Source of the DNA: a virus
Lineage: Duplodnaviria; Caudoviricetes
Virus record (IMG/VR): IMGVR_UViG_3300030376_002890
Span: 1-25,082 of that record
Length of the DNA: 25,082 nt
Strand: one strand, 5' to 3'
The stretch's first letter is position 1. Every line of letters starts with the position of its first letter. The notes beneath the pieces are model-generated. The model was given only the letters and a program-made list of their open reading frames with translations. It ran no database searches and was not told the DNA's origin. This document shows, piece by piece, positions 14,732 through 23,557 of this stretch. Position numbers and translations under genes: made by a program.

Positions 14732-15300
14732 CAGAAATCGTCCTCTTCTTCCACGTCCTTGCTAGGTGTGATATTAGGTTCAGAAGCTTTAAAACCTTCA
14801 GTAGTACCAAACATAGCTACTACATCTTCTGTACTCATGTCACCTGTGTCTACACCAGCTCCGTTATTAAGAGACACCAGTTGTACACCAACCAGTTTAA
14901 GACTCGTGCCATAAGTGACTCCATCACGAAGGATATATGGTTTCTGATAGAATGCCAACTTGACACGACTACCAGCATACATAGGTGTAGCTTCATCTGT
15001 AATCTGTACGCCTTGCGTATCGACAACAGGTGGACGGTTCTCTTCGTTCCAACTGAACTTGACTTTGTATTGCCCATCAGCTACTTCTTCCCATGGTTCA
15101 GGCTTTAGTGTTGAACGCTTAGGGTTCTTTAGTTTACCTTCTGCCCACTTGAGTGACTCAACACGGTCATCTTCAAGGGTATCAGCCATTGACTGATCGA
15201 CAATAGCAGCTAGTGAATAACCAAACTTACTTGGTTTCAATACAGCTTGGTAGCCTTCCAGGACTACAGGCTGTTCGGTTTTGTGGATGTTGCGTGGCAT
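14731..15300 (-). CDS. Single-stranded DNA-binding protein (T7 gp2.5-like)
   Basis: GSRVKL...GTSLKLVGVQLV and an acidic tail ending EEEDDF. Syntenic position. Confidence 0.92.
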   Translation of the reverse strand: MPRNIHKTEQPVVLEGYQAVLKPSKFGYSLAAIVDQSMADTLEDDRVESLKWAEGKLKNPKRSTLKPEPWEEVADGQYKVKFSWNEENRPPVVDTQGVQITDEATPMYAGSRVKLAFYQKPYILRDGVTYGTSLKLVGVQLVSLNNGAGVDTGDMSTEDVVAMFGTTEGFKASEPNITPSKDVEEEDDF

Positions 15301-17645
15301 TAACAGAAAAAATAAGTGGATTCAATCACGGATTCTGGTTCCAGATCTCCAATGATCGGTGGATTAGTCTCTGCTTCTATTTGAGTAGCAAAGTCTTGTA
15401 AATAATTATGCTCTGCAAATAAATGCATGTATGTTTCTCGTACTACGGAACTTAATAATTCCATGTCTGTAGCACGACACAATACAGAGTCATGTATAAG
15501 AGCAATCGGTGCATAAAAAGCTAATGCACTAAAATGTAAAAGCGAGGCGTCAAGTGAATGAATAAGATTAGGTGCTGTTGCGTTCTTGTGGTGTTGTTTA
15601 TCTACCTTGTCACCATCTTCAGTAGCAACAGTAAGTTTACAACGACCAAGCAATTGTAGCTCAACCTGAATAGTTTTAGGTTTCATTAGACGTTGGTTAA
15701 CAACAAAACCAGATGGTGTTACCCATTTTAGTTCTGTTTTACCTTTATCAATAGCTTTAGATACTTCATTTTCAATCCATGACATAACAGCCATAGGACC
15801 AGGAACAACAGTATCCATTGCATCCCTAACAGCAACAACAGTTTTAGTTAGATCGTCTTTATCAATCTCAACACCTTTCTCTTTTAATGCATCTCTAATG
15901 TACCCACGGTTGCTGAAAGGTTTGGCATTGTAGGGTACCGTCATGACTACCCTTTTGACTACCTTTCTATCCATATGATTACGGATAGAATTAGGGCAGA
16001 AAGGAGCAGCAGTATTAGCAACGACAGCATAAGCATCTTGTGGTTTATCAGAAGGAATAACATTTACTAGACTAGCAGTAGATTTATCTCTAGCTAATCC
16101 AGCTAGTATTTGTAACCCACTACATGTAGCATCAGTAGCAACTATTCCACCTGTTGTTGTTCTATCTTTAATCAAGACACAATGATAATATTCATCACAT
16201 GCTGCTAAAAACTGCCAAGGTTCTGCAGCAGCTTCCCATTCGTGAATGTATTGAATTGGATCACATGCGACCATAGAAATAATATGAGTATTATTTATTA
16301 CCCAATTTAATCTATCTTCAATAGTATCCTTATCACGACCATAAGTAGTAGCAACTTGAAAGGCTAACCATTTCTCAGCATACTTATTCATCTTTGCTTC
16401 TTTAGCAAATCGAAGTAGACTTTTTCCAAAGTCAGTATCTTGTGGTGTTAAGTGTGATGGAATAGGATAAGCTCTCCCTCTATAATCAAAACTCCATGGT
16501 AAATAAAATTTATCTTTATCTTTAAATCTTGCTACTGCTTCCATTGTCATTCGAGTTCTACAAGACTTTCTAAACTCTTGAGCTTGTAAATCATGAACTA
16601 CTTTAGCTCTTCGTTTATAATCTTGTCTTGACTCTTTATTAACATCAATATCTATTGGTTTAGATGGTAGATCATGATGCATAATAGGGAGAAACTTACC
16701 GATTGCTCGTTCCATTCTATCTAGTTCTTCCGCTACCTTTACTGTAAAAGGATTTAAACGGTAAGCCACCTTCTGAATTTTGTTTAAAAATTCGATTGGT
16801 GTTTCTCCCTGTATAGATGTGGGGTTACCACGCCTTACTAAATTATGACCTGCCATGATCTCATTTAGGAAATAACCACCACATGATTCATTGCTCCAAT
16901 CTCTTGGAGGTATAAGCATAGGCCATGCAACAGGACTAAATAATTCAGCATTTTTCATAATCTCATCTTTTTTCTCCATAAATTCTGGAGTAGGGACAAT
17001 ATGTTGAATTTTCTTTCGTCCTTGCTGATGTATGTGTTTAGTAAACCAACCACTAGTCTCCATAATGCAGTCTAGTAACCAACCACCAAGTTGAACACGA
17101 TTTTTACTACCCCATGTCTGCCAAGGCGTAACATCATACCTGTTCATTAATGTTCTGATGTTAACTAGTTTCTGTTGTGTACCAGAAGAACTGTGCCAAT
17201 AACGTTCTTTTAGTTTATACAGTAACCCAGGTGCTGTCTTTTCATAATGCCTCATCTGGCACTCCTGTTCAACAGCTAGTCCAATAGCTTCACAAACGCC
17301 TACAGTGACGTTTGATTTGTCTTTATGACTAAATACCTTATCAAAGCATACCTTAAGTGCTATAGCAGCAGCAGCGAGTGGCTCAACATCAGCAAGATAC
17401 TGTTGTATCTCCTTAAATGATTTACCCGCTTGTCCTTTCTTTAATCTAGCGGTAGTATCTTCAATACGTGCCACCAACAAAGGAAGCAGGGTATCAATAG
17501 AAGCAGCTCCGTAAACACTAGCAGACGCATAAGATTTGTTTTCTAAATCTCGGGTGTTCTTATGTAGTTTTTTTAGACCATGTGCAATAGCATCACGTTC
17601 TAATTGAATTTGTTCGTCTAACTCTTGTTCAGTCGGAATCAGCAA
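15300..17645 (-). CDS. Single-subunit phage RNA polymerase (T7 gp1-like)
   Basis: DYRGRAY, DATCSGLQ, RKVVKRVVMTVPY, PNLIHSLDAS, IHDS and C-terminal YFFC. TTG start with AGGAG upstream. Confidence 0.97.
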   Translation of the reverse strand: MLIPTEQELDEQIQLERDAIAHGLKKLHKNTRDLENKSYASASVYGAASIDTLLPLLVARIEDTTARLKKGQAGKSFKEIQQYLADVEPLAAAAIALKVCFDKVFSHKDKSNVTVGVCEAIGLAVEQECQMRHYEKTAPGLLYKLKERYWHSSSGTQQKLVNIRTLMNRYDVTPWQTWGSKNRVQLGGWLLDCIMETSGWFTKHIHQQGRKKIQHIVPTPEFMEKKDEIMKNAELFSPVAWPMLIPPRDWSNESCGGYFLNEIMAGHNLVRRGNPTSIQGETPIEFLNKIQKVAYRLNPFTVKVAEELDRMERAIGKFLPIMHHDLPSKPIDIDVNKESRQDYKRRAKVVHDLQAQEFRKSCRTRMTMEAVARFKDKDKFYLPWSFDYRGRAYPIPSHLTPQDTDFGKSLLRFAKEAKMNKYAEKWLAFQVATTYGRDKDTIEDRLNWVINNTHIISMVACDPIQYIHEWEAAAEPWQFLAACDEYYHCVLIKDRTTTGGIVATDATCSGLQILAGLARDKSTASLVNVIPSDKPQDAYAVVANTAAPFCPNSIRNHMDRKVVKRVVMTVPYNAKPFSNRGYIRDALKEKGVEIDKDDLTKTVVAVRDAMDTVVPGPMAVMSWIENEVSKAIDKGKTELKWVTPSGFVVNQRLMKPKTIQVELQLLGRCKLTVATEDGDKVDKQHHKNATAPNLIHSLDASLLHFSALAFYAPIALIHDSVLCRATDMELLSSVVRETYMHLFAEHNYLQDFATQIEAETNPPIIGDLEPESVIESTYFFC

Positions 17646-17757
17646 TCAAGTCGTCTCCTGCGTCCTTGTTTGGTGTGTATGTGAAATCGTAACATTGTGC
17701 TAGCTCTGGGTAAGCTTCACTTAATTCTTCAAATTGATCAATCAAAATTAAACTCAT
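17629..17757 (-). CDS. Small acidic hypothetical protein (42 aa)
   Basis: Hand translation gives MSLILIDQFEELSEAYPELAQCYDFTYTPNKDAGDDLIADSD. Fills the gap before RNAP. Confidence 0.5.
   Translation of the reverse strand: MSLILIDQFEELSEAYPELAQCYDFTYTPNKDAGDDLIADSD
17658..17683 (-). repeat. CACATWCACACCA..CAAGGACGCAG leader motif, copy before RNAP
   Basis: Near-identical to 18335-18359. Both copies end 6-12 nt before a start codon. Confidence 0.7.
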
Positions 17758-18055
17758 TTGGGTTATGTGGTGTAATAAATTGTAATTCAGAATCTGTACA
17801 TACGACAAACTCAGACTTATCAGCCATCAACTGCTTAACTTTATTTTTAGCAGCATGTTGTTTCTGATACGTGTACTCTTTGATCTTACCTTTAGATGTA
17901 GTTTCTCTGATGATACAACAAACAGAGGAGGGTAGTTCCCAACCTCTGAGTTTCCAATCTACAAATTCTTCATAGGTTGGAGCATATAAAAACTCATCAG
18001 GTACTTCCTTCCATTGGCGCCAGTTGTTAGGTAGATACGGTTTCTTACCAGTCAT
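17738..18055 (-). CDS. Conserved cyanopodovirus early protein of unknown function
   Basis: PNNWRQWK...WELPSSVCCIIRE...KEYTYQ. Start likely at MTGKKPY (18055). Confidence 0.75.
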   Translation of the reverse strand: MTGKKPYLPNNWRQWKEVPDEFLYAPTYEEFVDWKLRGWELPSSVCCIIRETTSKGKIKEYTYQKQHAAKNKVKQLMADKSEFVVCTDSELQFITPHNPNEFNFD

Positions 18056-18209
18056 CGTCATCCAGATAAACATCTTTTAGTTTAGAAGAGCCACCGGACA
18101 ATTCAACAGCAGCGTGTAACGCGTGCTCCAAATCGGGTGCAAGTAACCACTGCACCTGCTCGTCTGTTGTGACATAGCGCCACGTCTTAAGGCGTTGTTT
18201 CTTTAGCAT
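18045..18209 (-). CDS. Small hypothetical protein (54 aa)
   Basis: Hand translation gives MLKKQRLKTWRYVTTDEQVQWLLAPDLEHALHAAVELSGGSSKLKDVYLDDDDW. TAATG coupling. Confidence 0.72.
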   Translation of the reverse strand: MLKKQRLKTWRYVTTDEQVQWLLAPDLEHALHAAVELSGGSSKLKDVYLDDDDW

Positions 18210-18328
18210 TATTTCTTTGAATAGTAACGTGATGTGATACGATTAGAACGCTGATAAATAACAGCAGTTGAGAACAATCCTACCATACCAATGATGGCAA
18301 GGATGATCGTTGATTCATCCCATTGCAT
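18209..18328 (-). CDS. Small single-pass membrane protein (39 aa)
   Basis: Hand translation gives MQWDESTIILAIIGMVGLFSTAVIYQRSNRITSRYYSKK, one hydrophobic helix plus a basic tail. Confidence 0.7.
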   Translation of the reverse strand: MQWDESTIILAIIGMVGLFSTAVIYQRSNRITSRYYSKK

Positions 18329-18334
18329 AAAAAA

Positions 18335-18359
18335 CTGCGTCCTTGCTGGTGTGAATGTG
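18335..18359 (-). repeat. CACATWCACACCA..CAAGGACGCAG leader motif, second copy
   Basis: Matches 17658-17683. Confidence 0.7.
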
Positions 18360-18369
18360 TTGAATGTGA

Positions 18370-18398
18370 TTGACAAAAATACCGCCGCTAAATATAAT
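18370..18398 (+). promoter_or_regulatory. Perfect consensus sigma70 promoter, antisense to the phage genes
   Basis: TTGACA (18370-75), a 17-nt spacer and TATAAT (18393-98). Confidence 0.7.
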
Positions 18399-18409
18399 AA
18401 TAGCGACGG
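18375..18409 (-). terminator. Terminator-like hairpin ending the first early transcription unit
   Basis: Minus-strand RNA CCGUCGCUA-(10-nt loop)-UAGCGGCGG-UAUUUUU. The G-U pair works only on the minus strand. Confidence 0.55.
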
Positions 18410-18419
18410 ATTGTGATTA

Positions 18420-18482
18420 GATTGTAATAAGAATTACAAATTAATTAAATTTGATTGTAATAAGAATTACAAATTAATTAAA
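18420..18482. repeat. Two exact 30-bp direct repeats, each holding a palindromic NtcA-like box (TGTA-N8-TACA)
   Basis: GATTGTAATAAGAATTACAAATTAATTAAA at 18420-18449 and 18453-18482. GTA-N8-TAC at 18424-37 and 18457-70. Confidence 0.85.
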
Positions 18483-18813
18483 AGTTTTGATTAAAGAAAT
18501 AATATTCAGAATCAAAATACACAGAAAAGAAATCGTATTTTAATGTTTGATGCCACACTAATTCCCAATCAATGGCATACTGTACCCAAGTAGGTAATGC
18601 ATCCATCTCAGAAGAATAGGTATCACTCATCAAATCTTCACAGAATGTTGCCTCGTCACGATAACAACCAGCATACGCATCTTCGAGTTGTTCGATGTCA
18701 GTGATACCGTACGATGTCAACTCCTCCATGAATTGCTCAATGTCAGTAACTGACTCAGAGTCAATAACTTTGGAGATGGCTTCTTCGTAGCGTGAAAGAG
18801 TTGGTGCAATCAT
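18478..18813 (-). CDS. ArdA-like acidic antirestriction (DNA-mimic) protein
   Basis: Very acidic. EDAYAGCYRDEATFCEDL...LPTWVQYAIDWE..W resembles the ArdA C-terminal domain. Early-region position. Start at 18813 or 18846. Confidence 0.65.
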   Translation of the reverse strand: MIAPTLSRYEEAISKVIDSESVTDIEQFMEELTSYGITDIEQLEDAYAGCYRDEATFCEDLMSDTYSSEMDALPTWVQYAIDWELVWHQTLKYDFFSVYFDSEYYFFNQNF

Positions 18814-18855
18814 AGTTGTGTGAATGTGTTGTTTGATGAGTGACAAGTTAGTTAA

Positions 18856-19095
18856 TCAAGCAAGAGTGAAAGAAGAAACATCGGTGTCATTGAGGCAGTA
18901 CTCGTTAACCCACTTACCGAATGATTTGACATTGCCAAAGATAACATCGAACATACCATCTTCGCTAACATTGCTGTATAGATACTGCCTGTTATTGTTG
19001 AACGTTACCAATGCTTGATTTGTTGCTTGGTTTACTTCAAGATTCTTGATTGCAGAAGACTTTATGCTGTTACGCGCAGAAGGTGTGAAGAACAT
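18856..19095 (-). CDS. KTSC-domain-like early protein
   Basis: SSAIKNL...LVTFNNNRQYLYSNVS...SFGKWVN follows the KTSC pattern. Confidence 0.65.
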   Translation of the reverse strand: MFFTPSARNSIKSSAIKNLEVNQATNQALVTFNNNRQYLYSNVSEDGMFDVIFGNVKSFGKWVNEYCLNDTDVSSFTLA

Positions 19096-19130
19096 AATAA
19101 AACAATAGAGTGAATAAGTAGGGTGTGAAA

Positions 19131-19163
19131 CCTACATCTAACCACCGAAGTGGCTAGAGGTAA
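19131..19163 (-). promoter_or_regulatory. Intergenic UUCG-capped long hairpin (possible RNase III or stability element)
   Basis: TTACC-TCTAGCCAC-TTCG-GTGGTTAGA-TGTAG with no U-tract, between two early genes. Confidence 0.55.
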
Positions 19164-19166
19164 GCA

Positions 19167-19385
19167 TCAACTATGGTTAGCGATGAACTCGTCGAGAGTG
19201 TAACCGTCGTCGGTGTCAGTGTCAGCAACTAGCTGATCATAAGACAATACATCTAACGAAGCACGATAGTCAGCAGGTGACATGTCAACGTCAGGATCGA
19301 AGTCGTCATGGCAAAGATAGTCATACTCATGACACAATGCGTCGATGAGTTGTACACGTGTGTATGTGATACTAGACATAATCAA
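19167..19385 (-). CDS. Small acidic early protein
   Basis: 72-aa Asp-rich ORF with an ATGA overlap with the upstream gene. Confidence 0.75.
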   Translation of the reverse strand: MIMSSITYTRVQLIDALCHEYDYLCHDDFDPDVDMSPADYRASLDVLSYDQLVADTDTDDGYTLDEFIANHS

Positions 19386-19672
19386 GCAGCAGATTGAAGA
19401 GTGAGAGGATTAGCATCGAAGTTGTCTGCACACTTACTATCATAAGCGAGACAATACTTGTTAACCCATGAACCGAGACTGATTGTATCTTCTAACAATA
19501 GTTTAAGGATAGCACGACGACTAACATTGTTGTAAGCATAACGCTTAACACTCTTGTTAGTGTTCTTGTAGTACACAGTACACCAACCACACCAAGGATT
19601 AACAATGATGTAATCAATGAAGGATGAAGAACGAATGATAACAAACGCTTTGTTGAGTGGATTAGAAAGCAT
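19382..19672 (-). CDS. KTSC-domain-like early protein (paralog of 18856-19095)
   Basis: SSSFIDYI...YAYNNVS...SLGSWVNKYCL. Start moved to MLSNPL, downstream of promoter P3. Confidence 0.62.
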   Translation of the reverse strand: MLSNPLNKAFVIIRSSSFIDYIIVNPWCGWCTVYYKNTNKSVKRYAYNNVSRRAILKLLLEDTISLGSWVNKYCLAYDSKCADNFDANPLTLQSAA

Positions 19673-19697
19673 AGTGTGATTGATTGAGTACTTAGTT

Positions 19698-19726
19698 AGT
19701 ATGGCAGAGAATGGAGTGAAAGTCAA
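19698..19726 (-). promoter_or_regulatory. Host sigma70 early promoter P3
   Basis: TTGACT-17 nt (ending TGC)-CATACT. Confidence 0.85.
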
Positions 19727-19896
19727 GCGGTAGTGGACAGTTCCTCACGTGTCATGTGGTATTGGTAGTTACCATTAGACATACGCGCACGTTGTAGCGC
19801 ACGCTCTGCATCATACTGTGCAGTGTAGTAATCGAAATCTTTGGATACACCGTTAGCGGTGCGAGTTAAGACGAAACGGAATGGTTGTTTGTTCAT
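19723..19896 (-). CDS. Early hypothetical protein (57 aa), probably leaderless
   Basis: MNKQPFRFVLTRTANG... The ATG begins at the 7th nt after the -10 box of P2. Confidence 0.7.
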   Translation of the reverse strand: MNKQPFRFVLTRTANGVSKDFDYYTAQYDAERALQRARMSNGNYQYHMTREELSTTA

Positions 19897-19902
19897 GCTT
19901 AC

Positions 19903-19931
19903 AGTATGGCATAGAATCGGTGGGAAGTCAA
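19903..19931 (-). promoter_or_regulatory. Host sigma70 early promoter P2
   Basis: TTGACT-17 nt (ending TGC)-CATACT. Confidence 0.85.
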
Positions 19932-19934
19932 TGG

Positions 19935-20090
19935 TTAGTGTGCACTTTGCCAACTGTCACACTCTCCAGTAATACCATCTAAGTAATCTGCAATCATATA
20001 AAACCACATGTCATTTTCATAGCAATCATTCATACCACTGTACCACATAACATCAACAGTTTCATCGATTTGTTGTTGCTTAGAGTTCAT
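19935..20090 (-). CDS. Small acidic early protein (51 aa)
   Basis: Hand translation gives MNSKQQQIDETVDVMWYSGMNDCYENDMWFYMIADYLDGITGECDSWQSAH. Ends just before P2. Confidence 0.62.
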   Translation of the reverse strand: MNSKQQQIDETVDVMWYSGMNDCYENDMWFYMIADYLDGITGECDSWQSAH

Positions 20091-20232
20091 GAAATACCTC
20101 GATTGTGTTAGTTACAATAATACCATTTAGTTTTGCTGGTTTGTTTCGTTTAGCACGCTTCTGTACATCACACCATAATAGTGTACGCATTGGTTTATCG
20201 TGAAGTGTGAATGTGGTTTCTTTTAATCTCAT
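20080..20232 (-). CDS. Small basic early protein (50 aa)
   Basis: MRLKETTFTLHDKPMRTLLW... The ATG is 1 nt after the upstream stop. Confidence 0.65.
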   Translation of the reverse strand: MRLKETTFTLHDKPMRTLLWCDVQKRAKRNKPAKLNGIIVTNTIEVFHEL

Positions 20233-20233
20233 T

Positions 20234-20554
20234 TTACTTGAACACATATCCTGACTCAAACTCAACAACCTCGTTGTTATCTTTGATAAACCATTGATAA
20301 TCTTTCTGAAATACACCATCAGTTAATGCATCACAGAATTCATTGATGATAACATTGAGACGAGATTTAGTCGTGTTAGTACGCCATCCACCATCAAATA
20401 CTCTGACGTTGTTATCAGTCACTGTCGCAATGTGATTGCCGTGAAGATACACAAGTGATGCATTGTTGTCGTTAGTGTATACCTCAGTATTTGCCTTATG
20501 CCAACACTTTCCCAACTTGATTGCACTGATCATGTCACGTTCAATCTGTCGCAT
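20234..20554 (-). CDS. First early gene, conserved phage hypothetical protein
   Basis: MRQIERDMISAI...VYLHGNHIA...DGGWRTNTTKSRLN...GVFQKDYQWF. GGAGAG RBS, downstream of P1. Confidence 0.8.
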   Translation of the reverse strand: MRQIERDMISAIKLGKCWHKANTEVYTNDNNASLVYLHGNHIATVTDNNVRVFDGGWRTNTTKSRLNVIINEFCDALTDGVFQKDYQWFIKDNNEVVEFESGYVFK

Positions 20555-20578
20555 TGTCTCTCCGTTTGGTATACATAT

Positions 20579-20607
20579 AGTATGGCACAGTGTACAACCA
20601 AAGTCAA
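20579..20607 (-). promoter_or_regulatory. Host sigma70 early promoter P1
   Basis: TTGACT-17 nt (ending TGC)-CATACT. Confidence 0.85.
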
Positions 20608-20639
20608 TGGGTAGTAGACAGTACGTTAACTGGCGCAAC

Positions 20640-20859
20640 AGATGTTGTGCGATATTTACACGTATCCGTGTACCACGTTAAATATTATTTAGCAGCGTCA
20701 TCGCTCGCGCTACGCGCTCGCTAATTGCGCCAAATGTTTGCACATAATGAACATTATTGCAGAAGCGAGCGAAGCGAGCGGCAACGATTAGTATATTTTA
20801 TACCCCTATGGGGGTTTTATAAGTAATACTTATATGATATATGGGTTCACAAATTTATG
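20640..20859. other. Probable genome terminus / terminal-repeat region (non-coding, palindrome-rich)
   Basis: Separates the last late genes from the first early promoter. Contains GCGAGCG repeats and several inverted repeats. Confidence 0.65.
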
Positions 20860-21045
20860 TCATTTTTTAAGGAGCCTTTGCTCGTTAGCGTAAGGTTCCG
20901 ACATAACAAAAGAGGTATAATCGTTAAAATACTGTGGAAAATAGGACCAAACAGGTAAGCACTGTTTAATATTATGATAATTTGAGGTACACATAGTAAT
21001 AAACAGTGCTAAGCAGTTAAGAGCTTGTTGAATTGAGACTATCAC
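20860..21045 (-). CDS. Hypothetical protein (61 aa)
   Basis: ORF overlapping the thyX end, GTG start, last gene before the terminal region. Confidence 0.5.
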   Translation of the reverse strand: MIVSIQQALNCLALFITMCTSNYHNIKQCLPVWSYFPQYFNDYTSFVMSEPYANEQRLLKK

Positions 21046-21667
21046 TGAACATTGCGTTATAAACGATAGGGAATTGCTGTTGTATAAGAGATTTAACGTT
21101 ATCAGCTATCAATTTGTGTTCATATTGTGTACCATTAGCACATCTAAGGTCAGTATAGTGCAACCAGGAGCGCAGGGTACCGTTCATATAGAGTTTAGTG
21201 GGTGTTGATAGGGGAAGGATGTCTCTTGCACACTCTTTAGCGACACCATGATCTAACATATCAGTATATAAGTCTAGGGATTGCTTATATAGATTTTGAG
21301 TACGCATTTCAAACTGTTGTGTAAGGAATGGATCTAGATCATCAATACTATTCTGTCTATTTTTAGTATCTTGTCTACGCAGGTTAGGCAGTTGTGGAGT
21401 ATTAACGACTTGAGCGTAACGTTGGGAGAATTCTTGAAAGGAGAAGGAGCGGTGACGAAGGATTTGACTAGCAACACTTCGGGTTGTGTCAATCTGTACA
21501 CACATATTAACCATTTCAAAGGGAGACCAATGCTTATGTTTAATTAGATATTTAATAAGACCTGTATAATTATCATTATTTTGATTAGATGGGTTAGATA
21601 CTCTAGCCATATAAGCTATTAATGATTCAGCATCGGGTGTTACGTGAACGAGTTCTACGTTATGCAT
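21017..21667 (-). CDS. thyX: Flavin-dependent thymidylate synthase
   Basis: HWSPFE, RHRSFSFQEFSQRY (RHRx7S) and AKECARDILP motifs. Confidence 0.96.
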   Translation of the reverse strand: MHNVELVHVTPDAESLIAYMARVSNPSNQNNDNYTGLIKYLIKHKHWSPFEMVNMCVQIDTTRSVASQILRHRSFSFQEFSQRYAQVVNTPQLPNLRRQDTKNRQNSIDDLDPFLTQQFEMRTQNLYKQSLDLYTDMLDHGVAKECARDILPLSTPTKLYMNGTLRSWLHYTDLRCANGTQYEHKLIADNVKSLIQQQFPIVYNAMFSDSLNSTSS

Positions 21668-21748
21668 ACAGTAGTATAAGTTGTGATGGGATTAATAAAG
21701 AGTGGTATTAGGAAGTATAATAAATACTCCAAGATTCAGTAATATTAG

Positions 21749-21782
21749 AGGAGGAATGAGAGCTTGTCTCGAATTCCTCCTT
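21749..21782. promoter_or_regulatory. Strong intergenic hairpin between terminase and thyX
   Basis: AGGAGGAAT-GAGA-GCTTG-TCTC-GA-ATTCCTCCT. Confidence 0.5.
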
Positions 21783-21832
21783 TTGAGCAGTCGGGTCCAC
21801 CCTTCCCTTCTGCCTATAGATGTGGGGTTAAG

Positions 21833-23557
21833 CTAAACCCAGGTAGGGATTGAGTTTCTAGAGTTACCTTTAGCTTGTTGTCTTTGTGTTAAATTCATAC
21901 CCAATACTAAATGATTAGCAGATGCTTGTGGGTCATCAATAAGCTCTTCTAACATAGCATTCCACTCTGTACGTTTACGATCTTTAATAGCTTCTAAGGC
22001 AGATATACCCATAGCATCTGTAAAGTATTTAATACCTTGAGAGAGAGCGTCTAATCTATCATCATGTCTAATTGCACCTTTTTCACGACACATCCTAGAC
22101 ATTTGATAGAATAACATATAGAGTAGTCGTTCTTCTGGTGCAGCATCTGGATTAGACTTAAAGTCTTTTTCAATTACGGAACGGTTAATAATGAGTCGAT
22201 GTTGATTGAGGATGGGTTCGATGGAATCAATGATTCGATCTTCTTTTCTAACATTTGCTCTGACTTCTTCAATATCAATTCCTTGTTTTGTTTGTTGAAG
22301 ATGTTTGCGGAACAACTCGCTAACAATCCCGTCACCAAAATTAGTTTCAATAAGTAACTTAGATACGCCATACTTTTTACAACCTTTTAAAATATCAAGT
22401 AATGTTTGGTCTGAGTATCCATCTCTGTAAGCACGCATTTCGTGCAAGTACAAGAAACCGTTCCGTTGGGAGATAAAAGCTGCTGCTGTTTCATCCGTTC
22501 CACGGCCCGATGGATCAACTGAGCATATTGTTTCTTGGTAAACATCCCATTCTCCTTGGAGCTGCATTGGAGAGTAGAAATAATCTCCAGGTAAACCAAC
22601 CGTTGGAAGGTCTTTGATGACGTTTTGGGGATCGGAGCACCATACAACGGATTCAGGTGCAGTAGTTGGGTTAACGCTAGTAACAATAAGATCAGCACAT
22701 TTAAGAGGGAATTTTTCTGCATCAGATAAACTTGTGTCTAACATAAATTGCAACATAAAGTTGCTACGACCCATTGATGCTTCACGTTCAATTAAATCAT
22801 CATTATCAAATCTATCATCTGTTATTTCCCATTTCTTAGCACCTTTATCAATGTCTTCGACAAGTTGTGGTGCTAGGAGACCTTCGTATTGACTAACTTT
22901 ACGAGGATATCTAGCAGGCCAAACAAATGGTTTGTAAGAACGTTCTGCTAGTTTACGATATACAGTAAATGTAGTCTGTGGTGTTCCGAGAAACATAATA
23001 CGGCTATCTGATTTAGGAGTGAGAATAGATTCAGCTTCAGTACAAAGTTGTAGAAGTTTCTCCCTCATAAATTCTGTCATTGAGTTGCCGGGAACCTCAA
23101 TGTCGTCAAGAATCATTAAGTCAGCGCGAGAACCTGTCAGTTGGCCAGTAATCCCTACAGACTTGACGGAAGGTGCTTGGTGGGGGGAACAGTTTACATC
23201 GAAACTGATTCGTGACCATCTTGAGTCGTCTGATCTGGGCTGTAAATGTTTTAACCATGAAGTTTCTATAATTAATTTTTGTAAGAAGATCGACATATTA
23301 TCTGCACGTTCTTTAGATGCAGAAATAATCATTATCTTTTTTTCGGAGTTATTAAAGAGAGTCCAAAGAACAAAAGCACCAGTAATCCAGCTCTTACCAA
23401 CTCCCCGAAATGCTTGGATCTGTAAACGCTTTGGACCGTGTTGAAGGTAATCAGCAATTGCATATTGGGCACGTGTAGGATTTGGTAGGTCGAGTTCATT
23501 CCATAATGCTTGAAGAAAAAGTTTAAAATCACTCTTTAATAGATCTAATGTATTCAT
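21833..23557 (-). CDS. terL: Terminase large subunit (T7 gp19-like)
   Basis: QAFRGVGKS Walker A, GQLTGSRADLMILDDIE, VDPSGRGTDET and HDDRLDAL. Start likely at MNTLDLL (23557). Confidence 0.96.
   Translation of the reverse strand: MNTLDLLKSDFKLFLQALWNELDLPNPTRAQYAIADYLQHGPKRLQIQAFRGVGKSWITGAFVLWTLFNNSEKKIMIISASKERADNMSIFLQKLIIETSWLKHLQPRSDDSRWSRISFDVNCSPHQAPSVKSVGITGQLTGSRADLMILDDIEVPGNSMTEFMREKLLQLCTEAESILTPKSDSRIMFLGTPQTTFTVYRKLAERSYKPFVWPARYPRKVSQYEGLLAPQLVEDIDKGAKKWEITDDRFDNDDLIEREASMGRSNFMLQFMLDTSLSDAEKFPLKCADLIVTSVNPTTAPESVVWCSDPQNVIKDLPTVGLPGDYFYSPMQLQGEWDVYQETICSVDPSGRGTDETAAAFISQRNGFLYLHEMRAYRDGYSDQTLLDILKGCKKYGVSKLLIETNFGDGIVSELFRKHLQQTKQGIDIEEVRANVRKEDRIIDSIEPILNQHRLIINRSVIEKDFKSNPDAAPEERLLYMLFYQMSRMCREKGAIRHDDRLDALSQGIKYFTDAMGISALEAIKDRKRTEWNAMLEELIDDPQASANHLVLGMNLTQRQQAKGNSRNSIPTWV

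Follow-up and report, generated by a model that had tools for sequence, protein, structure and literature searches.

A conserved hairpin, possibly a leaky terminator, with an optional duplicated stem-loop cassette ahead of the RNA polymerase module of a T7-like cyanophage

How does transcription pass from the early genes to the RNA polymerase module of a T7-like cyanophage, and does the nitrogen status of the host have a say in it? The question is raised by a short intergenic stretch (positions 18370 to 18482) in IMG/VR virus record IMGVR_UViG_3300030376_002890, of which positions 1 to 25,082 were analysed (hereafter the window), a 25-kb fragment with an estimated completeness of 56%. The original prediction placed a nitrogen-gated checkpoint here, in which early transcripts stop at a terminator-like hairpin while the cyanobacterial nitrogen regulator NtcA, bound to duplicated palindromes, starts a new transcript that escapes the terminator. 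We prefer another reading and give it about an even chance: a conserved leaky terminator (attenuator) stands ahead of the RNA polymerase module, together with an accessory, recently duplicated AT-rich stem-loop cassette.

On the coding (minus) strand, the stretch begins at the stop codon of an ArdA-like early gene (18480-18478) and runs through two 33-bp units, CTAATCACAAT, a hairpin (18409-18382), UAUUUUUGU and a C/A-rich leader to the ATG at 18328. The hairpin has a GC-rich 9-bp stem, CCGTCGCTA (18409-18401) pairing with TAGCGGCGG (18390-18382), with one G.U pair, a 10-nt loop and a folding energy of -13.6 kcal/mol. Directly 3′ of it lies the U-tract (18373-18381, minus strand; it reads TATTTTTGT, tail UAUUUUUGUC), where 7 of the next 10 bases are U. 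A simple terminator scan with a loop limit of 8 passed over this hairpin, whose loop is 10, and the Rfam 15 covariance models gave no match at E up to 1 in 17500-21900. What marks an intrinsic terminator in sequence, namely a stable GC-rich stem-loop with a U-tract directly 3′ of it on the transcribed strand, is found here. The 165-nt intergenic RNA (sense strand) folds at -27.6 kcal/mol (z = -5.2; none of 200 shuffles was as low), and the predicted fold consists of three serial hairpins, two UUGUAAU-UCUU-AUUACAA stems and the GC hairpin. Judged by its sequence, then, the hairpin is an ordinary intrinsic terminator, and it shares with the early terminator TE of T7 a GC-rich stem, a short loop, a U-tract, the sense strand and a host-transcribed early region. 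In T7, TE lies after the polymerase and ligase genes (genes 1 to 1.3), whereas the hairpin here precedes the polymerase module; because of this placement it would have to be leaky.

Orthologous regions were gathered in three ways: by the upstream protein in viral contigs, by the hairpin arms, and by protein alignment in metagenome contigs. A script searched 114 sources, 70 of which had both anchors and yielded 54 distinct intergenic sequences; among the 44 without both anchors, 15 were read by eye, 6 were unrelated GC-rich matches to the hairpin pattern and 23 distant loci were left out. A GC-rich hairpin of -10 to -17 kcal/mol lies just 5′ of the conserved leader in 53 of the 54 sequences, with stems of several families (CCGTCGCTA/TAGCGGCGG, CCCTCAGTATT/AATACTGGGGG, CCGTCAGTATT/AATGCTGACGG, ATAGTGGCA/TGTCACTAT and AGGCGGCA/TGTCGCCT). 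Covariation was analysed in 19 of the 30 alignable sequences, covering the first three of these families: 99.4% of 170 cells pair and 5 of the 9 pairs are changed on both sides, values reached in none of 500 column shuffles; pairing in slid controls does not exceed 59%. What is conserved in the element is the GC hairpin, kept by compensatory changes in nearly all relatives, and with these changes the earlier call of a terminator-like hairpin and U-tract ahead of the RNA polymerase module holds. In the CCGTCGC-type sequences, the family of the window, the U-tract has 7-8 U of 10. The one exception among the 54 is L122, where the CAAGGACGCAG leader comes almost directly after the stop codon and a hairpin is missing; the hairpin can therefore be lost. 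The gene after the hairpin differs among relatives while hairpin and leader persist. In this the locus resembles the composite terminator/promoter elements of T4-like phages known as PeSLs, presented in the available part of PMC4122927 as a conserved stem-loop and flank at junctions with a differing neighbour gene and with mosaic spread; here, however, there is no sense sigma-70-like promoter past the stem-loop but a C/A-rich leader, and the phage family differs.

Upstream of the hairpin, a promoter scan gave three early sigma-70-type promoter-like sites (20607-20579, 19931-19903 and 19726-19698, minus strand), each TTGACT-17-CATACT with TG and a score of 9/12, in agreement with the early promoters P1-P3 that had been proposed. 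The scan showed no sense-strand sigma-70-like site comparable to P1-P3 between the hairpin and the polymerase gene, and early transcripts therefore have to pass the hairpin. In the mechanism that we propose, the GC hairpin and its U-tract would form a leaky intrinsic terminator that acts on the host RNA polymerase and separates the anti-restriction-like early genes from the RNA polymerase module. Host polymerase from the three upstream promoters would stop there in part, and read-through would supply the polymerase gene and so determine its dose. For the AU-rich stem-loops there would be at most a role in adjusting termination or RNA stability, with no sequence-specific protein reading them; the GTA-N8-TAC match would follow incidentally from the 7-4-7 palindrome, and the cassette duplication a recent slippage-type polymorphism. 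Two RNA-library contigs bridge the hairpin (X9, 17552-18549; X8, 18226-18566), which is compatible with read-through. It may be noted that assemblies break just 3′ of the hairpin (gap of X7 at 18239-18346, RNA contig ends at 18338 and 18347, contig start of L013/G002), which fits strain branching at a mosaic junction, the most likely reason for the gap and the RNA contig ends.

The cassette consists of two 33-nt units, found by repeat and motif scans on the minus strand, that are 97% alike. The distal unit (18449-18481; palindrome TTGTAAT-N4-ATTACAA at 18455-18472, GTA-N8-TAC at 18457-18470) contains the stop codon of the ArdA-like gene, and the proximal unit (18416-18448; palindrome at 18422-18439, GTA-N8-TAC at 18424-18437) has its box centre at 18430.5. 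As originally described, the exact 30-bp copies (18420-18449 and 18453-18482) recur at a 33-bp period, and each holds the palindrome TTGTAATAAGAATTACAA with GTA-N8-TAC and TGTA/TACA flanks. Allowing up to 3 mismatches, the 18-mer palindrome matches twice in the window against 0.05 expected, and none of 100 shuffles had at least two matches. The cassette lies in the AT-richest 80 bp of the window (18425-18504), with 11.3% GC against 21.2% in the next lowest stretch and 39.6% overall. The two-copy form is also present in contigs L004 and L049, which have one spacer change (TCTT to TTTT) in the proximal unit, and in RNA-library contigs of X8, X9 and X10, so the assembly artefact that had been considered as a refutation can be set aside. 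X7, from the same study as these RNA-library contigs, has one unit. L005 also has one unit; apart from this 33-nt indel it agrees fully with the window in all 40-nt bins of an 800-nt stretch. Because of L005 and of the one copy in X7 against two in X8, X9 and X10, the duplication is, from these sequences, real, recent and polymorphic, and therefore not the essential design feature that the NtcA hypothesis leans on.

The distribution of the palindrome among relatives differs from that of the hairpin. It occurs in 6 of the 54 distinct sequences (the window, L004, L005, L012, L013 and L083) and in two further contigs (L049 and L084), while 14 of the 15 further loci read by eye lack it; the conservation in orthologous intergenic regions, whose lack had been named as a refutation of the checkpoint, is thus wanting. 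Loci nearest in the upstream protein outside the 99% group (89-93% identity; L006 and L050-L054) have no cassette, the hairpin following 13 nt past the stop, whereas L012, L083 and L084 (70-72% identity) have the same cassette almost base for base. Over 18528-18409 the comparison with L012 gives 39/40 and 39/40 identical positions, against 22-36 of 40 in bins of the open reading frame (ORF); as a whole, identity reaches 97-98% across cassette, hairpin and the final 40 nt of the upstream ORF in lineages whose ORFs share only 55-80%. From this pattern the palindrome module is read as a mosaic, optional accessory. Among viral contigs the exact 18-mer has 14 loci: the 8 plus-strand loci viewed comprise 3 orthologous sites and 5 unrelated contexts judged to be chance, and among the 6 remaining loci L026 shares a contig with L012.

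Other lineages hold different sequences at the same spot. Box-less relatives with the same hairpin (L001, L042 and L046) have a partial palindrome, TAAT-TCTA-ATTACAA, and the L037 group has TGTAA-N10-TTACA, which is GTA-N12-TAC, so that complementarity is kept but the NtcA spacing is not; by its sequence, this N12 arrangement suits a fold and not a dimer site of fixed spacing. Elsewhere there are unrelated 6-12-bp stems, mostly with 4-nt loops, such as GUGGCA-UAUG-UGUCAC (twice in tandem in L009, with the compensatory pair GCGGCA/UGUCGC in L014), GUUAGU-UAUU-ACUAAC, UAGUUA-UUAU-UAACUA, and AUUGUAGA...UCUACAAU followed by U6. Many sequences have no significant structure 5′ of the GC hairpin. 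Since different sequences with the same kind of fold occur in variable number, cassettes that act at the RNA level or are structurally neutral account for them more easily than sites of one regulator do. Tandem duplications of unrelated hairpin units and, in three contigs, a multi-hairpin cassette of about 150 nt, including a 12-bp AU-rich stem and then U6, are also seen at this junction among L009 and L124, and L111, L113 and L127.

Some protein-based roles of the repeats were considered and rejected. A multi-site operator does not agree with the 18-mer being nowhere else in the window (up to 3 mismatches) and only once per genome in the complete relatives G001 and G002, where matches with up to 2 mismatches are no commoner than those of a reversed control pattern. 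A promoter for the phage polymerase was dismissed as the middle and late regions of the window have no further copy of the motif. No DNA-binding family that would point to a phage-encoded repressor or helix-turn-helix protein was found among the early ORFs (20 ORFs against Pfam, 12 against PHROGs).

Several observations weigh against the leaky terminator with its accessory cassette. The RNA-library evidence consists of assembled contigs, which carry neither ends, nor strand, nor level. In several other lineages the tails are U-poor (AAUUUCAC; also AAUUUCACAU and CUUUCUGUCG), with 3-5 U of 10, and there the hairpin may be a stabiliser rather than a terminator. The upstream AU-rich stem-loops (UUGUAAU-UCUU-AUUACAA), whose role is putative, fold weakly, at -3.4 kcal/mol. 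The high identity of the cassette could reflect selection on the exact sequence, as a protein site needs, and not recent recombination. The box has every sequence feature of an NtcA class II promoter (GTA-N8-TAC, T/A flanks, no -35, N21 to TAN3T), and the hexamer TATTAT downstream of it is kept in all 8 box-bearing contigs, against TATTAC or TATTAA in 6 of 7 box-less distinct sequences with the same stem.

The first alternative takes the hairpin as a barrier or processing signal at the 3′ end of an mRNA, guarding the upstream early message after an endonuclease cut in the A/U- and C/A-rich leader, with the AU stem-loops as part of the same stability element. We regard it as rather unlikely. 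The stem covaries even in families with U-poor tails, which speaks for a barrier, but the tail of the window's own module is a textbook U-tract, shared by all CCGTCGC-type sequences. RNase E is induced in cyanopodovirus infection, as stated in the accessible part of PMC3113571. A second stable hairpin with a UUCG loop, CTAGCCAC-TTCG-GTGGTTAG (about 19155-19136), lies between two early genes and has no U-tract; RNA-library contigs of four runs end beside it at 19132-19135, and the next contigs start at 19157 or beyond. These ends would also suit a barrier, but contig ends carry little weight, and a single study supplied all of them. It may be added that terminator and barrier roles are compatible with each other.

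We consider the NtcA model improbable. Here NtcA with 2-oxoglutarate would bind the proximal box as a class II activator, helped by the distal box, and start transcription at about 18389-18390 within the 3′ arm of the hairpin; the transcript would escape termination, and polymerase expression would follow the carbon/nitrogen (C/N) status of the host. The geometry speaks for it. The canonical NtcA promoter has GTAN8TAC at about -40.5/-41.5 and TAN3T about 22 nt (21-24) downstream, according to the available parts of PMC9430850, PMC5714215 and PMC11850224. Here two perfect TGTA-N8-TACA boxes are present, and the centre of the proximal one puts a -41.5 start at 18389. The putative -10, TATTAT (18397-18402, minus strand), starts 21 nt past the proximal TAC; it sits at the stem/loop junction and covers the last two stem bases and the loop, just as had been proposed, and the -35 position reads ACAATC (1/6). 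Its retention spans two loop versions (the loop of L083 differs), yet with sequences so few and related this is a hint only. In all these features, including a centre about 41.5 nt from the implied start, the putative site agrees with the NtcA class II promoter as far as the cited sources describe it; it departs from that promoter in being a perfect 7-4-7 palindrome, duplicated, in an optional module that most relatives lack, with its candidate -10 inside a terminator-like hairpin. T4-like cyanomyoviruses are a precedent for the idea of borrowing the host nitrogen regulator through intergenic GTA-N8-TAC: Sullivan et al. 2010 (PMC3037559), in the part available, gives predicted NtcA promoters with 1-16 sites per genome in these myoviruses, whereas here a podovirus lineage has a single locus. 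A literature search of partial coverage found no description of NtcA sites in T7-like cyanophages.

The evidence against the NtcA model is in part comparative. The box is missing in 48 of the 54 distinct orthologous sequences and also in closer ORF relatives, its copy number varies between otherwise identical genomes (L005), and L037-type relatives have the N12 spacing. The minimal core comes cheaply, as the original prediction had itself conceded: 6.09 ± 2.46 GTA-N8-TAC sites are expected in the whole window and 12 are present, a number reached in 3 of 100 shuffles. With an estimated chance of about 3e-4 per site, 1-2 matches are expected over some 50 spacers of 30-150 nt, and 2 are present, in the module and in L101, where an incidental GTA-N8-TAC lies inside the hairpin loop. 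Two more lie beside early promoters, one at 20611-20624, 3 nt 5′ of the -35 of the first, and one at 19759-19772, about 75 nt 5′ of the implied start of the third; since both promoters have good -35 boxes, these are probably chance. The spacing fit is cheap as well, as the AT-rich loop offers three overlapping TAN3T hexamers. Also, the 7-4-7 palindrome exceeds what NtcA needs and lacks the G at ±3 that contacts R191 (PMC11850224, available part), and the one promoter of consensus grade at this spot belongs to the opposite strand. Even the sign of any NtcA regulation could go in either direction, since a bound dimer could equally act as a roadblock to elongation, as the accessible part of PMC5714215 proposes for some Synechocystis genes. 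Of the checkpoint, the terminator-like hairpin, the upstream promoter-like sites and the box/-10 geometry stand, while the duplication (polymorphic) and the conservation of the palindrome do not. Since one lineage among many can be expected to carry GTA-N8-TAC by chance, the comparative evidence does not support NtcA gating, which keeps a low probability, and the consensus match of the palindrome is likely coincidental.

The promoter on the other strand leads to a further alternative. The promoter scan gave a candidate antisense sigma-70 consensus site on the plus strand (18370-18398), TTGACA (18370-18375)-17-TATAAT (18393-18398), with a score of 12/12; the -10 falls within the hairpin loop, and the site is directed toward the palindromes and the upstream gene, antisense to all genes. 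Judged by its sequence it is a better promoter candidate than the proposed -10 in the loop. In a DNA-level switch, this promoter would fire away from the polymerase gene and through the palindromes, a dimeric protein, either NtcA or some different factor of host or phage, bound to the palindromes at about +25 and +58 would block it, and a seated RNA polymerase would raise sense termination. We think such a switch unlikely too. The site is the sole 12/12 among 22 promoter-like sites in 15000-22000, where the phage's own early promoters reach just 9/12, but when the whole window is shuffled by dinucleotides, 12 of 300 shuffles contain a perfect site, and this 4% chance level is not compelling. 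The -35 is confined to the window, L004, L005 and L049 and is not kept in L012, L083, L084, L001 and L002; L012, L083 and L084 share box and hairpin but read GAGCAC or ATCACA at the -35, and L083 also lacks TATAAT. As the -35 is confined to the closest group of the window, the promoter is perhaps young or accidental. During infection by cyanopodovirus P-SSP7, host genes have protective antisense RNAs (PMC3113571, available part), but the RNA-library contigs here are not strand-resolved, and no plus-strand terminator-like structure was seen downstream, as judged by eye without a plus-strand fold.

According to the available part of Fletcher et al. 2026 (bioRxiv 10.64898/2026.08.19.745784), termination is modulated by promoters that overlap terminators, and a terminator palindrome can also serve as a site for a transcription factor. 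Such promoter-coupled terminators share with our locus the overlap of terminator and promoter DNA and a palindrome that is perhaps both RNA stem and protein site; theirs, however, have the promoter on the same strand with its -10 just past the T-tract, whereas our locus has its strong promoter on the other strand and the candidate -10 in the loop. A same-strand promoter-coupled terminator was rejected, as there is no -10 past the T-tract. Between 18372 and 18329 no sense-strand promoter reaches at least 9/12, and TTGTCA (18376-18371) has no -10 partner at 16-18 nt. The two preceding alternatives can be combined into a nested bidirectional promoter in one mosaic lineage, with a sigma-70 antisense promoter and an NtcA-dependent sense start in the 3′ arm of the hairpin, where NtcA would shut the former and open a termination-proof route to the polymerase, so that lytic commitment would follow host C/N; we hold this to be very unlikely.

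In T7, the primary origin has promoters and then an AT-rich stretch. That the AT-rich repeats here likewise serve as an origin of replication or a DNA-unwinding element, with priming from the promoter beside them, is most improbable: tandem repeats do lie within by far the AT-richest 80 bp, into which the consensus promoter points, but this island is optional, which an essential origin should not be (many close relatives have just 13 nt from stop codon to hairpin), the repeat number is not fixed and the promoter is host-type and not conserved, so that the origin iterons suggested earlier as an alternative find island and promoter in the window and lose the island in many relatives.

We return to the leaky terminator and its surroundings. 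All genes of the window lie on the minus strand and include those for a T7-like RNA polymerase, primase-helicase, DNA polymerase, endonuclease I, T7-type terminase and ThyX. The nearest named relatives around the finding, at 66-72% nucleotide identity, are Synechococcus phage S-RIP1 (Kajamvirus, host WH8101) and the uncultured Pekhitvirus MedDCM-OCT-S04-C24; among named isolates the module region is matched by S-RIP1 only, which lacks the box. On account of this gene content and these relatives the source is taken to be a marine T7-like cyanopodovirus, so the setting assumed at the outset, with the RNA polymerase gene at 15300-17645, is confirmed. The upstream early gene (18478-18846, minus strand) is weakly ArdA/anti-restriction-like (Pfam ArdA E 1.6e-4, below the cut-off; PHROG anti-restriction 4.5e-7). 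Its ORF is listed from TTG 18846, and the true start is likely ATG 18813 (M12 of the alignment), directly 3′ of a CACATTCACAC motif. The first gene past the hairpin (18209-18328, minus strand) encodes a small hydrophobic protein of 39 aa that matches phrog_29551 in PHROGs, and two more small ORFs lie between it and the polymerase gene.

The conserved leader CACATTCAA-CACATTCAC...CAAGGACGCAG (18335-18368, minus strand) ahead of ATG 18328 is kept across relatives whatever gene comes next. It is C/A-rich with a Shine-Dalgarno-like AAGGA, and a second copy (CACATACAC...AAGGACGCAG, 17683-17658) stands in front of the polymerase gene. Its motif CACATTCAC (CACATACAC before the polymerase gene) repeats just 5′ of early-gene starts, at 18351-18368, 18820-18828, 20207-20215 and 17658-17683, all on the minus strand, and AAGGACGCAG has exactly two occurrences, one ahead of the 39-aa gene and one ahead of the RNA polymerase gene; the leader may serve as a signal for translation or processing. 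Farther upstream, non-coding stretches at 20640-21017 and 21667-21833, with GC-rich imperfect inverted repeats at about 20700-20800, separate terminase and ThyX from the first early promoter. As the window crosses the junction between terminase and early genes, the physical ends of the genome or a terminal repeat probably lie in these stretches.

The NtcA idea, if true, would link infection to nutrient status, a principle proposed for cyanomyoviruses in 2010, although here in one optional module; natural variants with 0, 1 and 2 copies exist, so the question is cleanly testable. If the leaky terminator is the right reading, several genera of T7-like cyanophages would set a conserved and probably leaky terminator before the RNA polymerase module, which would give these abundant ocean viruses a simple means of controlling the dose at the change from host to phage transcription. 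In addition, the junction would be a recombination-prone site, at which small hairpin cassettes and downstream genes are exchanged.

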